Counted from the stretch's first letter, positions 47,765-60,969 are shown. The stretch: DNA of 64,000 nucleotides from Pseudomonadota bacterium (GCA_043808585.1 JAZDES010000221.1:11380-75379), one strand, 5' to 3'. Numbers and translations are program-made. The notes: generated from the sequence alone by a model not told the origin.

Positions 47765-49552
47765 CTATGAAGCTACGGGAAAGGCGGGGGGAACCAACTC
47801 TGTGGGGCCTTTCGAGGCATGTTGCCGGTGCGCCTGTAAATATGATCTCACCTCCGGCGGAACCGCTGTGAAACGAATTATGTGGGGATTTCCACGATCC
47901 CCAGCATTCCCTATCACCTTGCCATAGAAGACCTTATTCATCAGGTCTTCATCGACTCCTCTCAGGTTCATCTTTAGGTTGGTCAAAAGCTCAACGGGTT
48001 CGTCGAGGTTAATCTCAGCGGATTTTTTTGAGAGTTTGACCATAAAGCCCTCGATGCCCTTTCTCCCCACGTGCTTGCCCTCGAGCACCGTGTATCGCAC
48101 CGGAATTTGTCGCACCAGGGTAACAGGAGCAGGGTCCATCTCCTCCAGGGCGAGATTGAAGCCCCCGGCTATGCCTCCCACCTCGTAGATTTTTAACGGC
48201 GTTTCAGCTCCTTTAGGAAATACCTCTCGCTGGGCGTCAATTCGCAGGATCTCGCCTGCCTGTTCATATAGGGATTCCGAGACTAGTATCTGCCCACCGA
48301 CCGTATAGGACTCAATCCGACTTGTCATGTTAACGCCGCTCCCCACCACGGCATACTTGCTTCTCTTGCTGGATCCGATGTTCCCGACTATTACCTCGGC
48401 CTCGTTGAGACCAATCCCCATTTCCAGCTCTGGAAGCCCGTTAGTGCGGTTCTCCCTGTTTACCTCGGCCATGGCGTTTTGCATGGCAATGGCACATGCA
48501 ATGGCTCGATGGGCCCGGTCCGGCATCTCCTGTGGTGCACCAAAGATGACAAGGAGGGCGTCGCCGATGATTTCATTTATGGTTCCGTTGTATTTAAGGA
48601 CCACCTCCACCATGACCTCGAAGTAGGAGTTGAGCAACTGAACGACCCGCTCAGGCTCAAGACGCTCTGAGAGGGCAGTAAATCCCCTCAGGTCTGTCAT
48701 CATAATCGTGACTCTACGCTTCTCGCCCCCTAATTCAAGGGCCGAAGGGTTCTCAATGAGGGAATTCATGACCTCTGTGGAAAGGTAGCGGCCGAACATC
48801 TTCTTGAGAAGATCGGTCATCTCAGCCACCTTTGCCTCCCGGTCCCTCCACCGGATGAAGATGTAGGCAGTGAGCAGGAGCATGAGGAGAAAGACCACCA
48901 TCACAATAGCGAGGGTCCCAGCAAAATAATAGGTCTCTATCCTTCCGCCCGTAAAGGGAGATGATGAAAAGAGGGGTGCGTATGGTATGAGTCCAGCCCA
49001 CGTAGCTATTGATGAACCCAGGGTGAGGGCTGTGAAGGTGACGGCCCATGGCAGGGCGATTTTCGTTTCGAAGAGGAGGAAGTTAAGGGTCCCAAAGGCC
49101 ATCGCTAAGAGAAACGGCCCGGGGTGGGTCACAGACCCAAAGGCGTAACATACCAGTGACACATGAACTGCGTTATATTGAATAACAATGTGTGCAAAGG
49201 CCCTGCTTTCCGGAGAGCGCCGGCGTAACCATAGGCCTAAAAGCAAGAGGAGTATCCAGGGAATCCCGACAATTCGATTTAACTGATAGCCCAATTGAAT
49301 AATATTCCAATTGATCCAGGGCAAGCGCTCAAAATACTTTGATATCGCAATGTTCATGACGAGATTGCTGGCCCCTCCCACGAAGCAAAATAGGGCAATG
49401 AGAAGGAGGCAACGGTCGATCGTGCACCATTCCAAGGGGTTCTTGTTTTTCCGATTATATCGGAGAAGCAACACCCCGGTAAGAAACGCAAACGCCCAAG
49501 GGAATGCGGTTTGGGAAAACTGCTTGACCCATATTCCTTCCATGGCCAACAC
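47765..49552 (-). CDS. membrane-anchored class III adenylate/guanylate cyclase with C-terminal PilZ-like region
   Basis: An N-terminal domain of about 6 TM segments precedes the cyclase core (VTIMMTDLRGFTALSE, INEIIGDALLVIFGAP, GIGLNEAEVIVGNIGS, YAVVGSGVNMTSRIES). The C-terminal 120 aa are beta-rich with a loose PilZ resemblance, which is tentative. Confidence 0.82.
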   Translation of the reverse strand: MLAMEGIWVKQFSQTAFPWAFAFLTGVLLLRYNRKNKNPLEWCTIDRCLLLIALFCFVGGASNLVMNIAISKYFERLPWINWNIIQLGYQLNRIVGIPWILLLLLGLWLRRRSPESRAFAHIVIQYNAVHVSLVCYAFGSVTHPGPFLLAMAFGTLNFLLFETKIALPWAVTFTALTLGSSIATWAGLIPYAPLFSSSPFTGGRIETYYFAGTLAIVMVVFLLMLLLTAYIFIRWRDREAKVAEMTDLLKKMFGRYLSTEVMNSLIENPSALELGGEKRRVTIMMTDLRGFTALSERLEPERVVQLLNSYFEVMVEVVLKYNGTINEIIGDALLVIFGAPQEMPDRAHRAIACAIAMQNAMAEVNRENRTNGLPELEMGIGLNEAEVIVGNIGSSKRSKYAVVGSGVNMTSRIESYTVGGQILVSESLYEQAGEILRIDAQREVFPKGAETPLKIYEVGGIAGGFNLALEEMDPAPVTLVRQIPVRYTVLEGKHVGRKGIEGFMVKLSKKSAEINLDEPVELLTNLKMNLRGVDEDLMNKVFYGKVIGNAGDRGNPHIIRFTAVPPEVRSYLQAHRQHASKGPTELVPPAFPVAS

Positions 49553-49574: not shown

Positions 49575-50069
49575 TCAGACCAAAGGTCTTTCGAATGTAT
49601 CCAACTTCCCGACATCCTTTTCTTCATTGACCGAAATGTTAAAATGGATTGGAATACAATTCCTGATTGTACGGGTAAGGTGGCAATACTCCTTCATCAG
49701 CTCCAGGCACCTTTCGCCGATTTTCATCTCACCTTTTTCAACCACTATCTCCCCGGAGACAGTAATATCCGTGATAATATACCCCCTACCGTCAAATCCC
49801 ACAGTGGCCTTACCCTGAAGGTTCAACAAGACGAGCTGGATGTCGAAACCCGTTTGAAAGTCAAGGAATGTATTGTTCAGACATCCAAGAATGGCTGAGA
49901 CAAACAATTCATCAGGGCAGATCCCTTTTCCCATGCCACCAAATGTCTCGGGTGTGTCAAAGGCAATTTTGCGGCCCTGACTTATTGTTGCAGTACCGCC
50001 TGTCTTACCGTCCCAGACGCTGTCTGCGTGGAACGTGAGGAGCTTTGGATATCTAAATCTCAGATCCAT
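49575..50069 (-). CDS. OsmC/Ohr-family protein
   Basis: GICPDELFVSAILGCLNN and a later CHLT Cys fit the OsmC fold pattern. The size is typical, with a short tail. Confidence 0.65.
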   Translation of the reverse strand: MDLRFRYPKLLTFHADSVWDGKTGGTATISQGRKIAFDTPETFGGMGKGICPDELFVSAILGCLNNTFLDFQTGFDIQLVLLNLQGKATVGFDGRGYIITDITVSGEIVVEKGEMKIGERCLELMKEYCHLTRTIRNCIPIHFNISVNEEKDVGKLDTFERPLV

Positions 50070-50487: not shown

Positions 50488-51510
50488 CTAGCAGCACTTG
50501 TAAAGCCTCAAAAGGCGCTCGTCCATAACAAAGTAGAACTTCATAAATGAAGAGCCGTCCCATCGTGTCCTTACCCCGTGGACCGTATTTGCGAGCGCTA
50601 TGGTGCTGCGCAGGTGGGTGATCATAATGAGTTGCTTATTTTGGGCCATAGTCTTTAGAAGGGCCTGCATGGACTTGTGATTTGTATAATCAAGAGATGG
50701 TTCCACTTCATCTAGCAGGTAAAAGGGGCTGTCCAACTGCCCGAAAATGGCCAATTTCAGGGCAAGGCTCGTTACCGACTTTTCCCCGCCGGATAGTTGG
50801 TGAGATTTGCGCCTTCGGTTCCCCGGTAATGTAACCTCAACCTCTAACCCGCTTCGGCCATTCTGCTCAATGACTTTTAGGTGGCCCTCGCCCAATGGGA
50901 ACAGGAAATCCAGATACTGACGAAAAAGGGGATCTATCTCCTCATAGATGCGTTCGCCCAGATCTGGCCTCTTGCCTGTGGACAATAATTCCTCAACCCA
51001 ACGAAAACGTCTCCAGGGATCCAAAAGGATCATATCATTAATCTGTTCCTGTCTTATAATCGACCTTAGGGCATGGGGCAGTTTCAGATTTATCAACTCC
51101 TGCTTGTACTGTTCCCTTTGATGAAGTTCATCTTGAACCCAATAGGCATCCTTTCCATCCTTTGTCATCTCTCGTATCAGGCGTATGGTGGGCGCCTTCT
51201 TTTCCGTCCCCTGTTTAAAGATCAGCTCGACCCGAATCCGTGAGGCTGGAGGATAGTCCTTGCTGCCGCAGAAGAATAACTCGTCTTTTTCATAGCATCT
51301 GAGCCGGTTGAGATCATCTTCCCCCAGTGCCCAAACGATTGCATCCAATATGTTAGATTTCCCGACCCCGTTATTGCCTATAATTACGCCAATACCTGTT
51401 TGAAAACCCATATTCGTTAGCTCTGAAAAGGATTTGAACCCTTCAATATTTACATCCTCTAAGTAGAAGTCTTTCGATGTCTTGATTGCCTTCTCTTCTG
51501 GTGAATCCAT
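50488..51510 (-). CDS. SMC-head-only ABC-type ATPase (no coiled coil or hinge)
   Basis: The N-terminal head half has FKSF...GVIIGNNGVGKSNILDAIVWALGE...LRC...ELFFCGS and RQEQINDMILLDPWRRFRWVEEL. About 40 aa later comes the C-terminal head half: LSGGEKSVTSLALKLAIF (signature), FYLLDEVEPSLD (Walker B), MITH (H-loop) and GVRTRWDGSS. The start is set at the ATG at 51510, with a GGGAGG RBS. Confidence 0.75.
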   Translation of the reverse strand: MDSPEEKAIKTSKDFYLEDVNIEGFKSFSELTNMGFQTGIGVIIGNNGVGKSNILDAIVWALGEDDLNRLRCYEKDELFFCGSKDYPPASRIRVELIFKQGTEKKAPTIRLIREMTKDGKDAYWVQDELHQREQYKQELINLKLPHALRSIIRQEQINDMILLDPWRRFRWVEELLSTGKRPDLGERIYEEIDPLFRQYLDFLFPLGEGHLKVIEQNGRSGLEVEVTLPGNRRRKSHQLSGGEKSVTSLALKLAIFGQLDSPFYLLDEVEPSLDYTNHKSMQALLKTMAQNKQLIMITHLRSTIALANTVHGVRTRWDGSSFMKFYFVMDERLLRLYKCC

Positions 51511-51540
51511 TACCCTACCTCCCTGACACATTGGATGAAC

Positions 51541-51834
51541 TCAGGCACTATTCCTATTAAGGTGTCGCCGGCGTATCTCATCGCTCAGTTCCTCCTGCCC
51601 TGGGATTATGGCCTCGTATACCAATTCTCCATCCAGTGCGACGCTGGGCAAAGACCTGGCCTTAAGTTCTCGGAAGCGCTGAATCCCTTCGCGCGTGCGC
51701 ATATCCCATTCCCTTACCTCTATAAGATCTTGAATCTCTTCCGGTAAGACCCTTACCGACTCCGCCATATAGACGCAGGCAAGTCATTGATTAAAGTCTG
51801 TCAGAAGCACATCAACAACAACCTTTTCCGCCAT
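51541..51834 (-). CDS. thioredoxin-fold selenoprotein, U-x-x-C motif (Sec at TGA 51784-51786)
   Basis: My translation from the ATG at 51834 (RBS agagga) reads MAEKVVVDVLLTDFNQ-U-LACVYMAESVRV... It then continues into ORF-track ORF 51541..51768 in the same frame. The cis-Pro-type block LPSVALDGELVY is present. It is a paralogue of 52817..53110. Confidence 0.75.
51742..51758 (-). promoter_or_regulatory. candidate SECIS hairpin
   Basis: The minus-strand RNA cgguaag-GGU-cuuaccg forms a 7-bp perfect stem (or 6 bp with a GGGUC loop). The stem starts 26 nt after the UGA. Confidence 0.45.
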
Positions 51835-51849
51835 ATTAATTTCCTCTAA

Positions 51850-52827
51850 TCATCTCACTTCCATGATTTTGAAGGCGATCTCTTCACCTCTTCGCTCTAA
51901 CAGGCCCCAGGCCGGCCCGTTAACGCCCAAGGCCGGTCCTAGACTGATGAAATCTATTCCTCCCACAGTCCAGTGCCCCCATTCCTTTGACTGGCTGAAT
52001 GCAATAATCTCTGCTTCGAACTGCGGTGCCATGGCCTCGAGTGCAGGAAATACTGTCTCATCATGTAAGAACTGGGTTAAACCGCACACCATATTTATTT
52101 CAAGGGCAAATGGTTCGAAGTCCGAAAATCCGGGGAGATCCTGGAGGTATTTTCCAAAAAAGGCCATCCCTCTCTTTTGAGCAATCTGGAATAAAAGGAC
52201 CTGGGGAAGACAGGTAAGGTAGTCTCTCTCCTTCTGCTCTAGATCGGGCAGTTTTTGTGACTCCATTCCCTGCCCATACTGCCAGTCCAGTTCTCCCTGA
52301 ATGGCCAGGAGTCCTTGTTTTCTTATCAGCCCGAGAATATCGCTACTATTCGATAATCGACCCGTAAGGTTTCCCAGGCAGTAGACCGTCTCAACCCCCT
52401 CTTTGCGGATCGCGTCAATAAGGCCTTGTAAGACATCGCTGCGTCCCTCCAGGTCGCCTATCAGGCCTGCGCGGTCTCTAAGCCCTGTGTCCTTGTATAC
52501 CCGAAATGAGTGCGCTGGAGCAAGGGTACCGTCTTGTACTGCCAACAAGGCCTTGGTCAGTTGATCCGGGCATGAGGTGTCATTCCTGCACCGGATGTCT
52601 TTGATCAGCTCCAATACCTCTTTTATGGGTCTTTGTCTCAAGAGCCGGCTCACTGCCTGGGCGTTGCCCGGGCAACCTCCACCTACGAAGCGTACTTCCT
52701 TGAGGACGTCCTCTTGCGTCTGGAAATGGATCTCCGGCGGACATACGCCCTTTGTTTGGTAAACAAACCGCAAGGTTTCATTGTTCGATTTCACTTGTCG
52801 TTTCCCGAATCCGCTTTCAATCGGCAT
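51850..52827 (-). CDS. TSCPD-domain (TIGR03905-like, 4-Cys) fused to a degenerate calcineurin-like metallophosphoesterase domain
   Basis: The N-terminal 90 aa read GVCPPEIHF...VRFVGGGCPGNAQAVSRL...RNDTSCPDQLTKAL, with the literal TSCPD motif. The C-terminal domain follows the MPE layout, but motif I reads GDLEG (not DxH) and motif II reads LGN (not GD). Confidence 0.7.
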   Translation of the reverse strand: MPIESGFGKRQVKSNNETLRFVYQTKGVCPPEIHFQTQEDVLKEVRFVGGGCPGNAQAVSRLLRQRPIKEVLELIKDIRCRNDTSCPDQLTKALLAVQDGTLAPAHSFRVYKDTGLRDRAGLIGDLEGRSDVLQGLIDAIRKEGVETVYCLGNLTGRLSNSSDILGLIRKQGLLAIQGELDWQYGQGMESQKLPDLEQKERDYLTCLPQVLLFQIAQKRGMAFFGKYLQDLPGFSDFEPFALEINMVCGLTQFLHDETVFPALEAMAPQFEAEIIAFSQSKEWGHWTVGGIDFISLGPALGVNGPAWGLLERRGEEIAFKIMEVR

Positions 52828-53110
52828 CTGCTATGATGCGTTCGATACAGGCCCTCAGTTCCTCCTGACCGGGGGTTTGAGCGAATACAAGTTCCCCTTC
52901 AATAAAGATGCTCGGAACAGGCGCTGGCCGCCCCAGGGCCTTGGAAATCTCATTGTACCGGGTTGCACCTTCAAGCTGTTTGGTGATGACCTTTTCCACT
53001 CTGAGGGCGTCACCGAAATCTGGTGCCACGGAATCGACCACCCTGGCCATGTACACACAGGGGATTCAGTGTTCCCCTTCATGGAGAAGTACCAAGCGTA
53101 TTGGTTTCAT
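52817..53110 (-). CDS. thioredoxin-fold selenoprotein, U-x-x-C motif (Sec at TGA 53066-53068)
   Basis: My translation from the ATG at 53110 (RBS gggagg 7 nt upstream) reads MKPIRLVLLHEGEH-U-IPCVYMARVVDS... It continues into ORF-track ORF 52817..53056 in the same frame. The cis-Pro block VPSIFIEGELVF is present. Confidence 0.78.
53033..53050 (-). promoter_or_regulatory. candidate SECIS hairpin
   Basis: The minus-strand RNA auggcc-AGGGU-ggucgau has one bulged G. The loop lies about 22-26 nt after the UGA. Confidence 0.4.
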
Positions 53111-53243
53111 CTCATGCCTCCCTCAGGAAGTTGAAGCGCAATAATGCTCTTTCCAATTAAAGCGTTATTACGGAATTTAGCTCCGGTTGGAAATCGTCCA
53201 AGGGACGATTTATCCAAACAAAGTAGATGATAATAAAATGGGG

Positions 53244-54044
53244 CTAAAAGCGCAATAGGGGAGCAGATACCTTCTTAAGGGCGTCCTGAAGGCTGGTTTC
53301 TGTAGCGGTGTTTACGATTTCTTTGATTACTGCATATTTGAGCAGCACGGTCTTTTTCATGCCCAAAGCAAATGAGGTCACAAGAAAACTGAAGTCAGAA
53401 TGATATTCCTCCTCGAATCGGGTTTGCAGGTCGCCCAGGGGTCTCCCGAGGTCATATACCCTTTTTAAAAGCTCCATTATCCCTTCGTCTGAAAGAGGTT
53501 CAGGTGACTGGATTTGGACCTTGCTGCAATAATCCATCTCGAATTCAACAACATCGGCAGGAAGCTCCACACCGTACCTCTTCCACATCTCCTTCAAGGC
53601 CTTTTTCCCGTTACGGTTTTCCATGGTCCGGGTCTTGCCCATTTCCTGGCTCCACAGACCATAGGATCGGCACCCGAATGTCCGGTATTTGTATATTGTG
53701 CACAGGCCGTCGGCCATAAATGGACACCCTCTAAGGCGGGCCGGATTGGTGAGGTAGAATTCCGCGAACCTTTTAAGCAGGACGGTCGACTCGGGCTCAG
53801 GCATTGCCTGCAGGAGCTTGAGCCATTGAAAGGCCTCAAGCACTGTCATCTCCGGCAGAAATATGCAGCAGAGTCCCGGCTCCTTGCACATACATTGGGT
53901 CTCAGGCAACCGGCTATAGAGGTCTTGCAACCGTCCGAAAAGCGGTTCTGCAACTGGCATAAACGATCTCAGATCTTCCAGGGTGATCATCCGAATCCCC
54001 ATGAATTGGGCTACCAGCCAAATTGGATCAGAACCCGATTGCAA
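53244..54044 (-). CDS. YkgJ-family (CxxCxxCC-type) zinc/iron-chelating Cys-cluster protein
   Basis: CMCKEPGLCCIFLPEMTVLE...GCPFMADGLCTIYKYRTFGCRSYG follows the UPF0153/YkgJ pattern. The start codon is uncertain because several in-frame Met codons are available. Confidence 0.65.
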   Translation of the reverse strand: MQSGSDPIWLVAQFMGIRMITLEDLRSFMPVAEPLFGRLQDLYSRLPETQCMCKEPGLCCIFLPEMTVLEAFQWLKLLQAMPEPESTVLLKRFAEFYLTNPARLRGCPFMADGLCTIYKYRTFGCRSYGLWSQEMGKTRTMENRNGKKALKEMWKRYGVELPADVVEFEMDYCSKVQIQSPEPLSDEGIMELLKRVYDLGRPLGDLQTRFEEEYHSDFSFLVTSFALGMKKTVLLKYAVIKEIVNTATETSLQDALKKVSAPLLRF

Positions 54045-54111
54045 AAGAAAGAAAGAAGTTGAAGGTAGTAGTAAAAGACATGCCTGGTTGTTGGCGTATC
54101 TCTCTCAAGGC

Positions 54112-54498
54112 TCAATGCACTGAACCGGAGGTGATAATCTCCTCCTGCAACATCATCTTGAGCCTGGTCTTCCACAGGGAGTAAAGGTCGGCCAAGGCCT
54201 TATCACAGTCCATAGATCTCCCCAGATACTTAAGTTGCCCGAGGCAGTAACCCAATTCCAGGGAGAGTATGATGCTGACCGGTATTGCTAATTCTTGTCC
54301 AATCTCTGCAGGGAGACGACCTTTTTCTACCTCTTGGAGGAACGTCTTTTTATCAAATTCCGGCCCCAGTAATTGAAAAACCCGCTCTACGATGGCCTTC
54401 AGCATGGCTTCGTAAAAGTCGCTTCGATCTGCGTCTATTATGATCTTTTCTCCAAGCAGCGCGATCTTCGAATCCATGGCTTCGGCCAAAACCCCCAT
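54112..54498 (-). CDS. hypothetical protein (helical, 128 aa)
   Basis: It is an ORF in the same operon orientation with tight spacing to its neighbours. I recognise no motif. Confidence 0.45.
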   Translation of the reverse strand: MGVLAEAMDSKIALLGEKIIIDADRSDFYEAMLKAIVERVFQLLGPEFDKKTFLQEVEKGRLPAEIGQELAIPVSIILSLELGYCLGQLKYLGRSMDCDKALADLYSLWKTRLKMMLQEEIITSGSVH

Positions 54499-54517
54499 TA
54501 GTTTTCCTGCTAAACAC

Positions 54518-55162
54518 CTACAATCTTTCCAGACCGGTTATGACCCCGTGGCAGCGGCACGCCGTGCTCAGAAGAAGCTGACCCCCGGCCTTATCCACCT
54601 GGTCCATCAACGAGCGAAGCTCCTTGGGGCGGTAACCGCCGACACCCGGCGCAAGTTGGCGGCTCCTGATGGCGAGCGGCCGATAAGGGAGAAACCTTAT
54701 GTCCCCAAGGATCTCAAACATGTTCTGTTTTCTCTTTTCTCCTGTAGCCGTACAGATATCACGCGGTTCCGCACAATCATCAGGACACCTGAAATCGGCG
54801 TGGCTAACATATATGTTCCCGTCGGTTCCGCGAATGGAATTAGGGAGAAGTGGCTCAATACCATGTGGCAGGGTGACGCGTCGAAGCCGCCCAGGGCCTA
54901 GGCGGGCCAGAATCCACTCAGCGGCCAGGTGAACGGGCAAGGCGGGAATAATCCAGTCCGGGTTGCCGTGGGTGAAGAGGTTTTCCTTGAGAAAGTCTAC
55001 CCCATCGGCCTTTTCGAAGGTAGAATAGGGGCCCTTGCACCGAGAAAGATTCTCCTCAACCGGATCTACCAGTACAAAACGCCTCGTTTTTCTTGTTTTC
55101 GAGAGCCTCTGGTAAGCTATCGATCCAAACCGGCCCACACCGATTATCCATATCTCTTCCAT
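54518..55162 (-). CDS. Rossmann-fold protein with C-terminal Cys motif, unknown function
   Basis: The N-terminal IWIIGVGRFGS...VLVD is a dinucleotide-binding motif. A later CPDDCAEPRDIC and a C-terminal CRCHG are present. Confidence 0.55.
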   Translation of the reverse strand: MEEIWIIGVGRFGSIAYQRLSKTRKTRRFVLVDPVEENLSRCKGPYSTFEKADGVDFLKENLFTHGNPDWIIPALPVHLAAEWILARLGPGRLRRVTLPHGIEPLLPNSIRGTDGNIYVSHADFRCPDDCAEPRDICTATGEKRKQNMFEILGDIRFLPYRPLAIRSRQLAPGVGGYRPKELRSLMDQVDKAGGQLLLSTACRCHGVITGLERL

Positions 55163-55283: not shown

Positions 55284-55475
55284 ATGGATCAAGAGATGAT
55301 TGAATGTCTTATTCGTGAGGAAATAAACGCCTATTGTTCTTGTCCTAAGATTGACTGTGAAAGACACGGCCTTTGTTGTCAGTGTATCGTGGCACACAAG
55401 AACAGGTTGGATACTGAATTCATAAAACGTTTCCCGCACTGTCTGAGAGGGCTTGTCGAAGAAGTGATGGGTTGA
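55284..55475 (+). CDS. small Cys-rich protein (CxC-x5-C-x5-CCxC-x3-H pattern)
   Basis: CSCPKIDCERHGLCCQCIVAHKN...PHC resembles small cytoplasmic Cys-rich proteins of anaerobes (DUF6485-like). This comparison is from memory and is unverified. Confidence 0.45.
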   Translation: MDQEMIECLIREEINAYCSCPKIDCERHGLCCQCIVAHKNRLDTEFIKRFPHCLRGLVEEVMG

Positions 55476-55703
55476 TGGCCCAAACGGCTTGATGCCCCTG
55501 GGAGCAATTCCTCTCCTCAGAACTCTATCCCTTTTTGGGCCTTGATTCCCGTGCTGTAGGGATGTCTTATTTCTCTCATCTCTGTGACAAGATCTGCAAT
55601 CTCAATTATTTCTCTCCTTGCTCATCACTGCTGGAACCCCAGGTGCGGACTATAATTTCGGTTCTTGAAGAGATTAGGGTGCCGTTACCGGTCTCTTGAA
55701 CAC

Positions 55704-57464
55704 TCAAGGAATTGTTTTTCCGAAGGATTTTCCACAGGCTATGCATACCCACTTAAATGCTTCATCTACAGTCGAAACATGAACTGGGAAACTAAAGTTT
55801 GCCAGCCCATGAGCCATTTGTGTGATTTGAGGCAGTTTCAATCCAGCCCTTTTCATAAGCTCTGCTTTGGCTAAGGCCATACGGATTGGAGCATCCAGGA
55901 CGATCCGACCCTCATCAAGCATGACCACTCGCTCGACATCCTGAGTTAAAAGTCGCATGTTGTGGGTAATAAGGATAATGTTTTTGCCCGAAGCGTTCAG
56001 ATTTCGGAGAATTCGCATCAATAAGTCCGATAACCCTTTATCCTTGCAGGAAGACGGTTCATCCACGATGAGAATATCCGGCTGCATGGCCAGTACCGAT
56101 GCCAGGGCAATCTTTTGCCGAGCGGCTTCTCCTAATGAGAAAACCGGAAAATTAAGAGGGTAGGCTAACTCTACCGCGATCAGGGCATCGTGCACTCGTC
56201 TCTCTATCTCCTCGGGTCTTAGCCCCAAGTTCTTCAAGCCATAGGCCACCTCCTCTTCAATCGTTGTGCAGAACAACTGGTGATCCGGATTCTGAAAGAT
56301 GTACCCGACTCTGGTGACAAGTTCTTTTGTCGAGACCTGCCTGGTATCAACCCCGTGTATCGTGACTTGGCCACTTGTGGGTCTTAGCAGACCGAGGGAA
56401 TGCTTAGCCAGGGTGGTTTTCCCGCTCCCATTTTTCCCCAAGAGAGCGATATATTCGCCCCGGCCTATGACTAGGTTTATGTCACGCAGTGCTTCGCTGC
56501 CATCAGGATAGGCGTAGGATAGGTGTCTGATTTCTATGGCCAGGTCGTTGGATATCTGGAAAGGCCGAGCAAAAAGGTGAGGGATAGAAAGTGTAGGAGC
56601 GGATTGGCTCTTACCAGTAACCAAACTCCCTATCATGTCCTGAGCTGCCTCCAGGGTCACTGGTAATTCCTCTTTCCAAAGCCCACTTTCCGATAATCGG
56701 TAGCCCAGTTCTGTCACTTGAGGTAACCAGACACCATTTGCTGCTGTTGAATCCATTCCTTGAAAGAACCTTTGGGGTGCTTCTATGTGTAAGATCCCTC
56801 CCTTGTTCAGCAGGACGAGGCGATCCACCAAATTAATCAGTTCCTCTGTGTTGTGTTCCACGATGACTGCGGTCGTTCCAAATGTCTCTTTAAGGTCATG
56901 GATGGTCGAGAACACCTCTTCCTGGCTTGGTCCATCTAAATTGGAGAGAGGTTCATCGAGAACTAATACGTTAGGTCGAAGGGCAAGTATGGATGCCAGC
57001 GCCAGCCTCTGTTTCTGTCCGCTGGAAAAGGCCAGAGGGTGCTTATCCTCGTATCCGGAAAGGCCAACCACTTTTAGGGCCCATTGGATCCGGCTCAACA
57101 TCTCCTCATATGAATAGCCGAAGTTCTCCAGGCCAAATGCTACCTCATCCAATACGCTCATGGATACAAACTGGGACTCGGGATTCTGAAAAAGCATACA
57201 AACCCGCCTAACAATTTCTTTCAAGGTTACAGTCTTGGTCTCTACTCCTGCCACGTACACCGAACCGTTCATCTTGCCGGTCACAGCGTGGGGTATCAAG
57301 CCTGCTATTGCCAAACATAGGGTGGTCTTCCCAGCTCCGGTAGGGCCAATGACTCCTACTACTTCTCCCTCGCCAATTTCCAGATCGATCCCTTTCAGAA
57401 CCCAGTCTTCACCGTCTTCATATCTCCACCACAGATCCTCTATGATGACCATCTTGCCATTCAT
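55704..57464 (-). CDS. ECF-transporter duplicated ATPase (EcfA-EcfA' fusion, CbiO-like)
   Basis: There are two complete ABC cassettes (GPTGAGKTT/FSSGQKQR/LVLDEP and GKNGSGKTT/FSLGEAARQK/LIVDEP). The start is probably the ATG at 57464 (MNGKMVIIEDL). Confidence 0.88.
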   Translation of the reverse strand: MNGKMVIIEDLWWRYEDGEDWVLKGIDLEIGEGEVVGVIGPTGAGKTTLCLAIAGLIPHAVTGKMNGSVYVAGVETKTVTLKEIVRRVCMLFQNPESQFVSMSVLDEVAFGLENFGYSYEEMLSRIQWALKVVGLSGYEDKHPLAFSSGQKQRLALASILALRPNVLVLDEPLSNLDGPSQEEVFSTIHDLKETFGTTAVIVEHNTEELINLVDRLVLLNKGGILHIEAPQRFFQGMDSTAANGVWLPQVTELGYRLSESGLWKEELPVTLEAAQDMIGSLVTGKSQSAPTLSIPHLFARPFQISNDLAIEIRHLSYAYPDGSEALRDINLVIGRGEYIALLGKNGSGKTTLAKHSLGLLRPTSGQVTIHGVDTRQVSTKELVTRVGYIFQNPDHQLFCTTIEEEVAYGLKNLGLRPEEIERRVHDALIAVELAYPLNFPVFSLGEAARQKIALASVLAMQPDILIVDEPSSCKDKGLSDLLMRILRNLNASGKNIILITHNMRLLTQDVERVVMLDEGRIVLDAPIRMALAKAELMKRAGLKLPQITQMAHGLANFSFPVHVSTVDEAFKWVCIACGKSFGKTIP

Positions 57465-57474
57465 CTTCAGACAC

Positions 57475-58335
57475 CTAGGATACTGAGAGATAGCCGTAAA
57501 CATATCTATCTACAGTCACGACAATGAAAAGCGCGGATGTGGAGGCCAACAGGACATAGTCGTAGATATTCCATTTTAAGTGCCTGAAACAGGTTCTGTG
57601 TGTGGTTTGAAGGGTGAAGCCGCGTGCCTGAAGAGCTAGGTCTACCTTTTTTATATTGATGAACATATTGGCAAGTAGAGGAGATGCCAATTCCGACAGC
57701 CTTTTCATTCGCTCTATCAGGGAGCCGCTAAACTCCATCCCTCGTGCCCGCTGGGCCTCGACCAAGGCCCACCAACCATCAATAAGGGTCGATATAAGGC
57801 GTAGGATGAAGGCAGAGGCAAAGCAAACCACATAGGGCAAGCGAAGAAAACGCATAGCCATTATGACATCAGCCTCCCGTGTGGTGCACAGGAAGATGAG
57901 GCTGATAAATGAAGCAGTCAAGAACCGGGAATAGAAGGTCACGATGACCAAGAGGGTCCTCTCTGTAAAATACGAGCCCCATGGCAGGGTGAAAAAAGTG
58001 ATGCGGCCAGGGACTTGGCTGAAAAAGGCGTGGGAGAGGGCTGCAATCAAAAGCAAGCCTGACATGGCCACAACGATCTTTTTCAAAAATACCCCTGGCA
58101 TGCGTGCCAACAGTAAACCACCACAGACCAGGGACAGCAAGAGTAGGCTGGCGTATATGTTCTCAATCATAAAGGCCACTGCACCCAGGAAGACTACCAT
58201 CACTAATTTGGTCAGAGAATTTATACGTTGGAGAGGAGAGTCGGGAGAGAAGTAATAGAGAAAAGACCTGATTTTGCTGCCTTTTCCTAATGCCGCCGAC
58301 CTTGCTTTATCTCCGCAAGCGCAATAGGTTGTCAT
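57475..58335 (-). CDS. ECF-transporter transmembrane component (EcfT/CbiQ family)
   Basis: It is a polytopic protein with the C-terminal ARG-type coupling motifs (AQRARGMEF...ALQARGF). Confidence 0.8.
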   Translation of the reverse strand: MTTYCACGDKARSAALGKGSKIRSFLYYFSPDSPLQRINSLTKLVMVVFLGAVAFMIENIYASLLLLSLVCGGLLLARMPGVFLKKIVVAMSGLLLIAALSHAFFSQVPGRITFFTLPWGSYFTERTLLVIVTFYSRFLTASFISLIFLCTTREADVIMAMRFLRLPYVVCFASAFILRLISTLIDGWWALVEAQRARGMEFSGSLIERMKRLSELASPLLANMFINIKKVDLALQARGFTLQTTHRTCFRHLKWNIYDYVLLASTSALFIVVTVDRYVYGYLSVS

Positions 58336-58347
58336 ACTACGGTCCTG

Positions 58348-58968
58348 CTAAGTCAAGAAACCTTTGGCATAGGCTCCTGTTGTCCGGGCAAATTTGGTGA
58401 AGCCCTTCAAAATGAGTGGAGTGATAAACCCAAGGAGCAGCAGAGATGCGATTACATATTGCACCCATATGACAGCTACGGCTCCGCTGGGCCAGATGCC
58501 GAAATAGACCGGGATCCAGGTCCCCCAGGTGCAAGCGATCAGGGTGTTGATTAAGACGCCAAAAATGATGAAGATCACCCAATCGCGTCTCGTGTTCAAG
58601 CCAGGGTCACCTTTTAGAAGCCTGAATGCAAGCAACGGGATGCCTGCCATAAAAACATCGTTGATAACCCAGGGCAGAGCCACTATCACTGGCGTGCCTT
58701 TAAGAATACCGCCTATAGCACAACCGATATAGGCGGCAGCCACGCCCCATGCTCCAAACCACAGGGCGAAAGGGACCATCAGTGGCACAGCGGGACAAAA
58801 CCCCAGAGGCAGACCGGGTATCACCGCGAATAGGAAGCCAGCAGCCGTGCAAAGGATGGCCATGACAGCCGTACAAAAGGCAAATGTCACGATATGGGTC
58901 GTTTTCAACTTCGGTGTGTTGTCTCGATTTTGTACATTCATTATCTTATCCCTCCTTTCCATAGACAA
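58348..58968 (-). CDS. putative ECF substrate-capture (S) component
   Basis: It is a membrane protein of about 6 TM segments located directly upstream of ecfT and ecfA. The substrate is unknown. Confidence 0.55.
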   Translation of the reverse strand: MSMERRDKIMNVQNRDNTPKLKTTHIVTFAFCTAVMAILCTAAGFLFAVIPGLPLGFCPAVPLMVPFALWFGAWGVAAAYIGCAIGGILKGTPVIVALPWVINDVFMAGIPLLAFRLLKGDPGLNTRRDWVIFIIFGVLINTLIACTWGTWIPVYFGIWPSGAVAVIWVQYVIASLLLLGFITPLILKGFTKFARTTGAYAKGFLT

Positions 58969-59296: not shown

Positions 59297-60436
59297 TTAT
59301 TGCTCCCTCATTAGATATGGGGGATCCGGGTAGGCAGGGCTGAAACACTGCAGATCCACGGTCTCGAACTTCATTCCCTGGTCTTTGAATAGCCTGGCAA
59401 CCGATTCTCGCACAATCCGTTCCAGATCCTCTGGATCAAGCCTTACCCGTGCATTCAGGATGAGGGAACCCTTAGAGACCTCGCCCAATTGGTAGCCACC
59501 AACGACAGGCCCTGCAGAGAGGTGCGTGATGTTTGTCCACAGGGTTTTCCCGGCACTGGTGATCACAAACTTTAAGTGCCCGATTTCGCTGTCTCGTTTC
59601 CTGAAGGCATCCCTGAGCTCCACGGCCAGGGCATTGGCGAATTGAGCGGCATTGAAGGGCACACTGGCCTTGAATGTAAATGCGGCATTGAGCCAGCCCA
59701 AAACCGCCTCTGCCGTTGCATACCGGTCATAATCGATCTGCCTCAATACAGTGCCTGCCCCTGGCCTGCCTGATAAAAGGTCCTCCAACCATGCATCCAT
59801 TCCATGACCCTCTGTGGCTGAGACAGCTGTTACGGTCTTTTCCGGAAATGTCTCTTTGAGGCGCGACAGGATCCTTTCGGTTTCCTCGTGTGAAAGGAGG
59901 TCAATCTTGTTTAGGACGATGACATCCGCCTCTTCCAACTGCTTTTGAAAGAGGTAAGAGACCTCCTCGGGAAAGGCTGTGGGTGTTTCATGGAACAGGA
60001 GCTCGCGAGCACGCTGGGGGTCGACCATGATGGAGAAGGGGGCAAACCGGAACGCGTCCTTATAGTGGATCTTTATGGGATTGGCTACCGCAGCCACGAA
60101 ATCGGTGCAGCTGCCGACCGGTTCGCCCATAAGGATATCAGGTTTGTGAGCCAGGATCTTTTCCACCTGCTTGATCAGGTCGTCGAACTTGCAACAGAAG
60201 CACCCCTCTACCACCTCTTCCACTGGGATTCCAAGTTCGCTGAGCATCTGCTTTACAATCACCGTGTCCACAAGGTTTTCGCTCTGGTCGTTGGTGATTA
60301 TGCCCACTCTCATGCCGCGGCGAATCAAATCCTTTGCAAGGGCTGCCAGGGCCGTTGTTTTTCCAGAACCCAGAAATCCGCCTGCAAAGATCAACTTCAC
60401 AGGCCTTTCCACGGTTAGTTGCCTGGGGACTCTCAT
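59297..60436 (-). CDS. G3E-family P-loop GTPase (COG0523/CobW-like metallochaperone type)
   Basis: GGFLGSGKTT (P-loop), EGCFCCKF (GCxCC-like metal motif) and VLNKIDLL (NKxD) are present. Confidence 0.7.
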   Translation of the reverse strand: MRVPRQLTVERPVKLIFAGGFLGSGKTTALAALAKDLIRRGMRVGIITNDQSENLVDTVIVKQMLSELGIPVEEVVEGCFCCKFDDLIKQVEKILAHKPDILMGEPVGSCTDFVAAVANPIKIHYKDAFRFAPFSIMVDPQRARELLFHETPTAFPEEVSYLFQKQLEEADVIVLNKIDLLSHEETERILSRLKETFPEKTVTAVSATEGHGMDAWLEDLLSGRPGAGTVLRQIDYDRYATAEAVLGWLNAAFTFKASVPFNAAQFANALAVELRDAFRKRDSEIGHLKFVITSAGKTLWTNITHLSAGPVVGGYQLGEVSKGSLILNARVRLDPEDLERIVRESVARLFKDQGMKFETVDLQCFSPAYPDPPYLMREQ

Positions 60437-60447
60437 CTTATCACCTC

Positions 60448-60873
60448 CTATGGTTCAAGGTTTCCTTGATCTCTTGTAGTTTTTGCGGTCCTGTGCTCCT
60501 CAAAAGGAAAAACGCTCCTTGCCTTATGGAAAAACCTCGTAATCAGTTCCTTCTGGATGGTCAGGGTCTGGACCCATCGCCAGAGGCACTCTTTTCCCAT
60601 TTCAGTAAGATAGTATTGCCGCTTGGCAGGGCCTTTATCCGGCGTATCCCATCTGGAGGACAACATCCCCCTCAGTTCAAGGAGTTTGAGATGCCGGTAT
60701 AAGCCTGTAATATTAATTGTAATTTTAAGGTCATCCATATTTTTTTTCAAAATTTGCTTTATTTTATAACCGTGGGTTCCCTCATGGTTATAAAGCGTCA
60801 AGAGTATCCATGGGGCCGTGAAGTAGCTCATATTTTTCCCGGAACAGGGGCAATCCTCAAACCTAATAGACAT
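60448..60873 (-). CDS. PadR-family transcriptional regulator with N-terminal CPC motif
   Basis: MSIRFEDCPCSGKNMSYFTAPWILLTLYNHEGTHGYKI...GLYRHLKLLELRGML...KRQYYLTEMG. The start is set at the ATG at 60873, with an AGGGAGG RBS. Confidence 0.75.
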   Translation of the reverse strand: MSIRFEDCPCSGKNMSYFTAPWILLTLYNHEGTHGYKIKQILKKNMDDLKITINITGLYRHLKLLELRGMLSSRWDTPDKGPAKRQYYLTEMGKECLWRWVQTLTIQKELITRFFHKARSVFPFEEHRTAKTTRDQGNLEP

Positions 60874-60969
60874 GGTAAGATAACCTCCCTTATCAATTAT
60901 TATACCATGTATACTATAACCTAAATTCTTTTTCAACTCAAAAAGAACGTAATGGTGTAATGACTTCTG

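Follow-up and report, generated by a model that had tools for sequence, protein, structure and literature searches.

We analysed a 64,000-nucleotide stretch of a Pseudomonadota bacterium genome (GCA_043808585.1, JAZDES010000221.1:11380-75379), referred to below as the window, in which seven minus-strand genes (g1 to g7 in order of transcription) occupy positions 50488-55162. Three of these genes, g5, g6 and g7, constitute a conserved module. They encode a fusion of a TSCPD domain with a metallophosphoesterase fold that has lost its metal ligands, a thioredoxin-like selenoprotein, and an ATPase that consists of an SMC head with its motifs intact. The three genes were adjacent and collinear in 62 of 72 loci from related sulfate reducers (Desulfobacterota), and genes of B12 (corrinoid) metabolism lay close by in nearly all of these; in some loci a DUF1638 domain is fused to the first of the three proteins. 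We tentatively favour a reading in which the triplet would process, reactivate or deliver the corrinoid cofactor of methyltransferase systems through a thiol/selenol relay gated by ATP, and we hold this reading to be nearly, though not quite, probable.

A conserved triplet within a variable operon

A first-pass annotation, made from the DNA of the window, had proposed a tightly packed operon of seven co-oriented genes of previously undescribed composition. An open reading frame (ORF) check located all seven on the minus strand, with the coordinates and contents given here.

54518-55162, minus, g1: 214 aa; Rossmann-like N-terminus, C-x3-C-x6-C and C-x-C motifs; occasional member
54112-54498, minus, g2: 128 aa; familyless; confined to the closest relatives of the window
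53244-54044, minus, g3: YkgJ/CxxCxxCC-like Cys-cluster protein; frequent accessory member
52817-53110, minus, g4: HUIPC-motif thioredoxin-like selenoprotein, 97 aa; selenocysteine (Sec) codon 53066-53068; frequent accessory member
51850-52827, minus, g5: TSCPD (Cys4) domain and catalytically degenerate metallophosphoesterase-fold domain; core member 1
about 52546-52764, minus, within g5: TSCPD domain
about 51853-52515, minus, within g5: pseudo-phosphoesterase domain
51541-51834, minus, g6: thioredoxin-like selenoprotein, 97 aa, motif TDFNQ-U-LAC; Sec codon TGA 51784-51786; core member 2
51742-51758, minus, within g6: hairpin CGGUAA-GGGUC-UUACCG (loop AGGUU in the comparison of orthologues), 27 nt 3' of the UGA, resembling a selenocysteine insertion sequence (SECIS)
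50488-51510, minus, g7: SMC-head-only ABC-type ATPase, 340 aa; Cys-Cys codons 50491-50496; core member 3

The intergenic spacings from g1 to g7 are, in order, 19, about 67-120, 133, -11 (or +22), 15 and 30 nt, and a GGAGG motif lies 8 nt ahead of the g7 ATG (51510). Homologue starts indicated that g3 probably begins at ATG 53990 and that the true start of g5 is likely GTG 52794 (314 aa). The 30-nt gap between g6 and g7 stands as annotated; the 11-nt overlap of g4 and g5 stands with the annotated start and becomes a 22-nt gap with the GTG start. No convincing promoter or terminator was found between the seven genes, the site counts in consensus scans being no higher than expected from shuffles. 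An Rfam scan of the window gave no match, and there are no tRNA genes in its 64 kb, hence no tRNA-Sec there.

A scan of one genome per GTDB species yielded 72 related loci, almost all in metagenome-assembled genomes (MAGs) of Desulfobacterales, Desulfatiglandales or 'Deltaproteobacteria'. Searching these by tblastn with the window proteins showed g5, g6 and g7 to be adjacent and collinear in 62, and four more loci were cut by contig ends. Identity to the window in these loci ranged from 42 to 92% for g5, 65 to 97% for g6 and 53 to 94% for g7. Because the loci were retrieved independently, collinearity in 62/72 indicates that the order g5-g6-g7 is not due to chance. Conservation of the gene neighbourhood, on which the annotation had staked its proposal beforehand, thus holds for these three genes. 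The 62 triplet loci are the basis of the gene-neighbourhood counts given below.

Conservation of the other four genes was less strict. The YkgJ-like g3 was present in 21/62 triplet loci, usually directly 3' of g7 and not upstream of it (median +2252 from the g5 start), and was also found in loci L079, L080 and L081; the short YkgJ-like call in L079 is a gene-caller artefact. The selenoprotein gene g4 lay 5' of g5 in 15 of the 62, often with a Cys paralogue, so that conservation of the neighbourhood holds for g3 and g4 too, but more loosely. A g1 gene occurred in nine triplet loci, several copies adjoining FNR-like, DUF1638 or CobA genes, and tblastn with g2 matched only L001 (69%), L062 (91%) and L080. 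Only two loci, those of the closest relatives L062 and L080, repeat the order of all seven genes; L001 is cut short and L010 has six of the seven. The proposal that all seven genes form one fixed unit is not sustained by the distribution of g1 and g2. As g1 to g4 vary among loci, we regard the conserved unit as the g5-g6-g7 triplet, surrounded by a variable shell.

Family assignments within this shell were weak. The TrkA_N match of g1 in the Pfam scan (E 0.003) and the PF03692 (CxxCxxCC) match of g3 (E 0.016) both fell below cut-off, no PDB relative of g1 was found, and g2 had no match in Pfam, NCBIfam or PADLOC. No relatives were found on viral contigs, nor was the fused form of g5 found on plasmids. 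The TSCPD relatives on plasmids are standalone TIGR03905 proteins, and their Rrf2, Nramp and C-GCAxxG-C-C neighbours were too uninformative to be drawn on. A standalone TSCPD gene in Cetobacterium adjoins an Rrf2 regulator.

Composition of the core proteins

The ATPase g7 scored 149.6 bits against SMC_N, bearing out its annotation as an SMC head, and 197.7 bits, in two stretches, against SMC_prok_B (TIGR02168, curated cut-off 567). Its scores against Rad50 models were at most 55 bits. Over its whole length the protein could be aligned (E 1e-45) to 1e69, an engineered T. maritima SMC head that has no arm. By sequence g7 is nearest to canonical SMC, with which it shares both head halves and all ATPase motifs; the continuity of the 1e69 alignment is consistent with the annotated lack of a coiled coil. 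Walker A, the Q-loop, LSGGE, Walker B (LLDEVEPSLD) and the H-loop were each invariant in 15 family members, from which g7 would be expected to hydrolyse ATP. A profile search among 1.84 billion representatives found full-length head-only proteins in just three clusters at 50% identity (329, 323 and 316 aa). The next matches to the g7 profile were canonical SMCs of 1100-1200 aa, whose residues 1-180 and ~1020-1170 fit the two halves of g7. This pattern shows that the g7 family is a narrow, SMC-derived clade that has lost the arm and hinge, its members (326-340 aa) having about 25-30 residues in place of the ~850-residue coiled-coil arm and hinge of SMC.

The g7 family also differs from SMC in its C-terminus, partners and context. 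The first-pass annotation did not mention that g7 ends in a pair of cysteines. Of 120 homologues, 118 terminate in ...YKCC-COOH and two in YRCC, and the divergent head-only clusters end in YRCCG and NYKCF. The genes beside g7 encode the TSCPD/pseudo-phosphoesterase protein and a selenoprotein in place of the kleisin complex ScpAB, and the setting is B12-related, not chromosomal. A short-armed SMC-like protein of 624 aa from a high-GC organism (P0267, L076 4827-6701) ends in ...TCC-COOH; it adjoins a LysR regulator, has no B12 genes nearby and was dropped from the B12 comparison. The arm may thus have been lost from a protein that already had the C-terminal Cys pair.

In g5, the TSCPD domain spans residues 22-94 and matched PF12637 with 59.9 bits and TIGR03905 with 72.1 bits (cut-off 67.7). 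Its four cysteines, C29, C52, C80 and C86, are all invariant in homologues, of which there are at least 600 with lengths of about 314 aa. The TIGR03905 model has 78 positions, and g5 carries an extra 220-residue domain. Canonical phosphoesterases bind metal through the motifs DxH, GD, GNHD/E, H and GHxH. The ligand motifs of g5 read GDLxG, LGNLTG and QGExD, and no invariant His was found in residues 105-325 across 24 homologues. In an AlphaFold2 model (pLDDT 82.5) the N-terminal part is a beta3-alpha3 TSCPD domain and the C-terminal part takes a metallophosphoesterase fold, and the g5 homologues P0117 and P0118 gave Metallophos_2 matches. The annotation of a degenerate phosphoesterase was therefore upheld, with the fold retained and the ligands absent.

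The best Foldseek matches of g5 in the PDB (E 4e-8) were PH1004/PF1291 (2gju/1nnw), SapH and Vps29. PH1004/PF1291, which are Pyrococcus structural-genomics proteins, were the best structural match to the C-terminal domain, and in a HMMER alignment the positions of 1nnw that correspond to the canonical Asp/His motifs do not carry them either. Vps29 is a non-catalytic scaffold. These proteins differ from g5 in having no TSCPD domain and no known ATPase partner. The C-terminal domain of g5 does not have the ligands of an active calcineurin-like metallophosphoesterase and is most likely a scaffold. The annotation had likened g5 and g7 to the SbcCD/Mre11-Rad50 pair, with which they share an ABC-type ATPase gene next to a calcineurin-fold gene. 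However, g5 lacks the phosphoesterase ligands, g7 lacks both coiled coil and zinc hook, Mre11/SbcD was absent from the top 50 Foldseek structures for g5, and the ATPase scored 198 bits as an SMC versus 55 as a Rad50, so the analogy fails on both proteins.

As a possible precedent for the TSCPD domain, the Cys-rich zinc domain of class II ribonucleotide reductase (PMC5704485) was considered and set aside, the Pfam name being unused there and no thioredoxin interaction having been found. The literature searched held no mention of TIGR03905.

Reading through the in-frame stops of g4 (TGA 53068-53066) and g6 (TGA 51786-51784) gives ...HEGEH-U-IPCVYMA... and ...LTDFNQ-U-LACVYMA..., respectively. 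The g6 UGA was at the same position in 67/67 orthologues from the related loci, preceded by VDVLLTDF[N/R/K]Q and followed by [L/V/I]ACVYMAE, and six loci carry a Cys paralogue of g6 with LDSVQCAAC at the UGA site. Among the retrieved loci and the window, the g4 family comprised 13 UGA copies and three HC[IV]PC Cys forms. The annotation of both UxxC thioredoxin-like genes as selenoprotein-coding is confirmed by this conserved in-frame UGA and by Cys at the same site in homologues; by these comparative signs g4 and g6 are real selenoprotein genes.

Codon usage in g6 differed on the two sides of the UGA. In the 12 codons 5' of it, amino acids were kept while synonymous sites varied freely (normalised codon entropy 0.80, 65 unique sequences), which indicates that these codons are translated. 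In codons +1 to +15, synonymous variation was suppressed (normalised entropy 0.35 versus 0.81 further downstream), and codon choice was fixed, with Ser always UCG and Lys always AAG, and with Val GUA, Leu UUA and Pro CCG. The hairpin 3' of the UGA was present in 63 unique orthologous sequences, and the stem substitutions noted were mostly wobble-compatible, a few of them breaking the terminal pair. Suppressed synonymous variation and hairpin together are, on this comparison, what marks a SECIS element in bacteria. Folding of the single sequence gave minimum free energies no better than those of shuffles, and the comparative evidence was used instead. For g4 there is a candidate hairpin only, at 53041-53062.

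The g4 protein is a member of the HUIPC family NF047660 (HUIPC_Trx_selen; 150 bits, cut-off 105, motif HUIPC), a curated family that went unmentioned in the first-pass annotation and that a review (PMC13188914) attributes to Haft & Tolstoy 2025. The g6 protein is a homologous thioredoxin-fold UxxC protein, but with a score of 46.7 bits, below the cut-off, and the motif QULAC it falls outside this family. Its motif, TDFNQ-U-[LVI]AC, is distinct, and no model is dedicated to it. The public record of the window lists g6 as the 75-aa 'hypothetical protein V1689_14660', and its relatives appear as hypothetical proteins of 72-85 aa whose first residue is the Met that follows the UGA. Where the call is full-length, as in a few records, W (in one case R) stands at the UGA position, where UGA was apparently read as a sense codon on short contigs. 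A database search for the g6 family gave 1138 relatives at E<=1e-3, with no selenoprotein label among the names shown. Every public record that we inspected (window 51541-51768; database entries P0391-P0510) is mis-annotated in this respect.

A DsrE-like ORF of 116 aa lies 3' of the SMC-head gene in L080 (11062-11412, plus strand) and has an in-frame stop in 'GV*PPC'. It is also present in L028, L044, L041 and L037, and since it is 72-80% identical across these five loci it is probably another selenoprotein. A thioredoxin-like Cys paralogue (KKKGC[MV]LC) adjoins it.

Corrinoid genes around the triplet

The ORFs of the 72 loci were clustered and representatives were scanned with Pfam, flanks being taken within 10 kb. 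At least one B12-linked family was present in 59/62 triplet loci, and in 54/62 when CobW was not counted, a context that had gone unmentioned in the first-pass annotation. The families were distributed among the triplet loci as follows.

cobW-family GTPase: 46/62; within 3 kb 3' of g7 in 30 of 46 loci with room
MtrH-like methyltransferase: 26/62
UroD/MtaA-like methyltransferase: 26/62
FNR-like reductase: 24/62
CobA/BtuR adenosyltransferase: 20/62
DUF1638: 20/62
B12-binding corrinoid protein: 15/62
TrxR-like: 10/62
DUF2284: 10/62
RACo: 6/62
CbiM: 5/62
CbiB: 5/62
Peripla_BP_2: 4/62
MeaB: 3/62

The TrxR-like genes stand directly 5' of g5, or of a HUIPC gene and g5, in about 10 loci. Independent gene calls and Pfam assignments gave an archetype operon in L079 and L081, in which Peripla_BP_2-FecCD-ABC_tran genes are followed by an FNR-like gene, CobA, DUF1638, the TSCPD fusion, a truncated g6 of 76 aa, the SMC head and the YkgJ-like gene. 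It continues with convergent cobW and GltD-like genes and then with MtrH, V4R, a PAS histidine kinase and a response regulator gene. The TSCPD/pseudo-phosphoesterase protein carries a fused DUF1638 domain in L081 and in two further clusters; these three-part fusion proteins are P0095 (565 aa), P0115 (18 member sequences) and P0117. One MAG, MFD01721.bin.2.15, has two triplets (L035 and L040), and each of them adjoins a methyltransferase set of its own. P0245, which at 41% identity is the head-only cluster that diverges most, also lies 5.5-7 kb from DUF1638 and CobA genes.

The DUF1638 family has itself been placed in corrinoid metabolism. In Phaeobacter inhibens, DUF1638 mutants are methionine auxotrophs, and the family co-varies with a split B12-dependent methionine synthase and a RamA-like activase (PMC5764234). 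DUF1638 and RamA have also been described as enabling the recharging of cob(II)alamin to cob(I)alamin, and they are induced on methylated substrates (PMC12478193). [quoted passage not shown]

In the window itself, the genes flanking the operon are as follows.

60448-60936, minus: PadR regulator (Pfam)
59297-60436, minus: cobW-family G3E GTPase with a GCFCC motif (Pfam cobW 97 bits)
58348-58968, minus: putative S component of an energy-coupling factor (ECF) transporter
57475-58335, minus: CbiQ-type ECF T component (Pfam CbiQ 72.8 bits; NCBIfam ECF_T_CbiQ 60.8 bits, below cut-off)
55704-57503, minus: duplicated ABC ATPase (two ABC_tran domains)
55520-55672, minus: CobA/BtuR pseudogene remnant (tblastn, residues 128-178 of 178, 61% identity, two in-frame stops)
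55284-55475, plus: Cys-rich 63-aa ORF, CxC..C..H..CCxC..H...HC, divergent from g1
49575-50069, minus: OsmC-like peroxiredoxin, 418 nt 3' of g7
47765-49552, minus: membrane adenylate/guanylate cyclase, after the OsmC-like gene

The CobA/BtuR remnant, which comprises the last 51 codons, lies between the ECF ATPase gene and g1. An intact CobA occupies its position in L001 and L010, which suggests that insertion of the ECF transporter, or a deletion, disrupted an ancestral operon in which CobA preceded g1. The 63-aa Cys-rich ORF matched no Pfam or NCBIfam family, is found at the same position in L062 (90%) and L001 (68%), and is probably a real small metal-binding protein or regulator. The OsmC-like and cyclase genes are probably not parts of the module, since their linkage is shared only with the 92%-identical L062. 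The remaining genes of the window belong to unrelated metabolism.

Several further features of the related loci were recorded. An island at +4 to +10 kb from g5 in L014, L016, L019, L033, L035, L036, L046 and others contains two V4R proteins, a PAS histidine kinase, a REC+LuxR response regulator, an MtrH-like and a UroD-like methyltransferase and a corrinoid protein, and from its gene content looks like a substrate-induced demethylase system. An apparent second TSCPD paralogue after the histidine kinase proved to be the REC+LuxR response regulator, an artefact of single-linkage clustering, and split RACo ORFs in L052 and L063, considered as possible Sec codons, are frameshifts. A protein of about 100 aa with two CxxC pairs (zinc-ribbon-like) is encoded at L073 1292-1600, at L053 4892-5206 and in other members of cluster c53. 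It follows the divergent head-only ATPase P0242 and precedes a 'CobW-TrxR-HUIPC-TSCPD' arrangement in Desulfobacterales loci.

Possible functions of the module

Going beyond a conserved module linked to B12 genes, we infer a physical complex of the three proteins, its contact with corrinoid, and the direction and chemistry of a relay. In the proposed mechanism, binding of ATP would engage two g7 heads, as in SMC, Rad50 or SufC, and this engagement would change the conformation of a bound g5 scaffold. The Sec-thioredoxin g6, the Cys4 site of g5 and the flexible Cys-Cys tail of g7 would together form a thiol/selenol relay, which would pass reducing equivalents or would ligate and strip the upper ligand of cobalt. 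An imported or inactivated corrinoid would thereby be reduced or processed and then handed to CobA, DUF1638 or a corrinoid protein. Electrons would be supplied by the FNR-like, TrxR-like or GltD-like flavoproteins encoded nearby, and g3, g4 and g1 would be optional extras to the three-protein module.

Two versions of this corrinoid-servicing role are plausible. In one, the module would remove the upper ligand from imported corrinoid and reduce it ahead of CobA, functionally like CblC/CblD; in the other, it would reactivate or load a corrinoid protein together with DUF1638 and RACo. A bolder version is that the triplet represents an unrecognised class of B12 chaperone or reactivase, in which an ATP-using, SMC-derived head dimer, a swinging C-terminal Cys-Cys arm, a Cys4 adaptor and an obligate Sec thioredoxin would strip or reduce the upper ligand of cobalt and hand the corrinoid to CobA, DUF1638 or corrinoid proteins. 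We consider this version doubtful, although worth stating.

Known systems offer partial parallels. RACo/RamA, DUF1638, CobA, MeaB and human CblC/CblD have in common with the module the use of ATP or GTP and a place as accessory genes in corrinoid methyltransferase or B12 uptake clusters, and the thiol chemistry of CblC/CblD on cobalt resembles that proposed here. RACo/RamA differ in being ASKHA ATPases with Fe-S clusters and have no homology to the module; g1 to g7 gave no match at E<0.1 to RACo (RACo_C_ter/DUF4445) or to other Pfam families of B12 chaperones. As the first-pass annotation had stated, no described system of this composition was found in PADLOC, in NCBIfam or in the literature, the comparison not extending to Haft & Tolstoy 2025.

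A number of observations weigh against a corrinoid role. The linkage to B12 is guilt by association, read from gene neighbourhoods; its enrichment is uncalibrated against genome background, and the loci come from one B12-rich clade. The lineage of the window itself has the weakest B12 linkage: the 64 kb of the window contain no methyltransferase or corrinoid-protein gene and CobA is a pseudogene there, while the 10-kb flanks of its near relative L080 are free of B12 genes. Searches for a cobalamin riboswitch were negative both for the window and for seven related loci. CobW-family GTPases are generic metallochaperones, and the score of the copy in the window fell well short of the CobW and ZigA cut-offs. 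Reducing Co(II) to Co(I) takes a far more negative potential than that of thioredoxin-type couples, so the Sec-thioredoxin cannot be the low-potential donor; its role would more likely be that of a nucleophile, a ligand or a reductant of Cys sites. RACo genes are present as separate ORFs in at least six loci, and the module is therefore not simply a replacement for RACo.

The same cysteines and selenocysteine might serve thiophilic metal(loid)s or cobalt. Such a function, which strikes us as unlikely, would involve a thiolate/selenolate ligand-exchange chain of the Sec-thioredoxin, the Cys4 site, the Cys-Cys tail, the CobW GTPase (GCxCC) and the YkgJ-like protein, and would traffic cobalt or present Hg, As, Sb or Se substrates to corrinoid methyltransferases. 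ArsD-ArsA and the C-terminal Cys pairs of MerA and HgcB are precedents for such a relay. The invariant CC terminus of g7 would suit it, as would the GCxCC motif of the cobW-family GTPases in 46/62 loci and the CbiM cobalt uptake genes in five. Aquaporin (MIP) genes occur in L001, L010 and L052, as in the TPOSR insertion (PMC10907483), DUF2284 occurs in fusion with arsenite methyltransferase selenoproteins, and newly found selenoproteins are mostly Hg- or As-linked (PMC13188914). However, no ars, mer or hgcA/B family was seen among the proteins scanned, MIP genes were rare (2/62 by clustering), and the CobA, DUF1638, RACo, CbiB and BtuFCD-like genes indicate a cofactor and not a metal substrate.

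Maintenance of protein thiols, also improbable in our judgement, would have electrons run from a TrxR-like or FNR-like enzyme through the Sec-thioredoxin to the TSCPD cysteines, keeping oxidation-sensitive Zn-thiolate or Cys sites of methyltransferases and Fe-S accessory proteins reduced. In its broader form the operon would be an oxidative-stress module whose ATPase acts as an unfoldase or clamp for a client. Two thioredoxin-fold UxxC proteins and the adjacency of TrxR-like genes in about 10 loci are consistent with this explanation, as are the thioredoxin-like, DsbD-like and DsrE-like genes in related loci and the OsmC-like gene 418 nt 3' of g7 in the window and in L062. However, the OsmC linkage extends only to that closest relative, and thiol maintenance leaves the SMC-head ATPase, the DUF1638 fusion and the operon structure with CobA and BtuFCD unexplained.

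We give a slimmer chance to a SUF-like relay of sulfur or selenium, or a cluster-assembly system, in which the ATPase would drive the TSCPD domain on its scaffold to build an Fe-S or other cluster, or insert it, in the Cys-cluster proteins of the island (YkgJ-like, g1, RACo and DUF2284). SufBC2D/SufU share with the module a soluble ABC-type ATPase and a Cys-rich domain, the likeness between the domains being weak. The TSCPD profile matched NifU/IscU chains at E 0.1-0.2, and hhalign to E. coli IscU gave E 0.015 but a probability of 3%, with C52 aligned to the Cys of IscU 'YGCG'. The top Foldseek match of a TSCPD-only model was SufU 8ztq (E 0.037, probability 0.72), and we treat the likeness to IscU/SufU as suggestive only. 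Rhodanese, DsbD-like and DsrE-like neighbours and the Rrf2 gene beside standalone TSCPD in Cetobacterium would accord with such a system. However, all three similarity signals are weak, no SufB, SufD, SufS or IscS was recognised in the loci, the ATPase is of SMC type and not SufC type, the scaffold is a pseudo-phosphoesterase, and a SUF-like role does not by itself account for the B12 linkage.

A DNA-directed machine or anti-phage defence system (SbcCD-, MADS-, Gabija- or Lamassu-like) is highly improbable: g7 is SMC-derived, is paired with a calcineurin-fold protein and matched mad3 in PADLOC 2.0 (140 bits, with GajA, AriA, LmuB, PtuA and generic ABC-type ATPases weaker), but it was the only protein to match and no defence system was complete, with g1, g2, g3 and g5 giving nothing; coiled coil, hinge, zinc hook and phosphoesterase ligands are missing and the fold of g5 is not Mre11/SbcD-like; the conserved core showed no recognisable genes for nucleases, methylases or mobile elements; relatives are absent from viral contigs and the fused form from plasmids; and the family, in contrast to defence genes with their fast evolution, shows extreme conservation (68-86% identity) in a constant chromosomal B12 context.

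The g6 family, truncated or mistranslated in the public records inspected, affects counts of the selenoproteome in sediment Desulfobacterota. The g7 family is an SMC ATPase minus arm and hinge plus a Cys-Cys tail, placed outside chromosome biology, and bears on the evolution of SMC and ABC ATPases. If the bolder version above is correct, the module would be for bacteria what CblC/CblD are, without homology to them, and would act as a partner of RACo/RamA or as an alternative; g7 would then be the first case in which cofactor metabolism has recruited an SMC ATPase. The processing, reactivation and delivery of corrinoids to the many methyltransferase systems of anaerobes is only partly known, through RACo/RamA and DUF1638, and the g5-g6-g7 triplet provides testable candidates for these steps.

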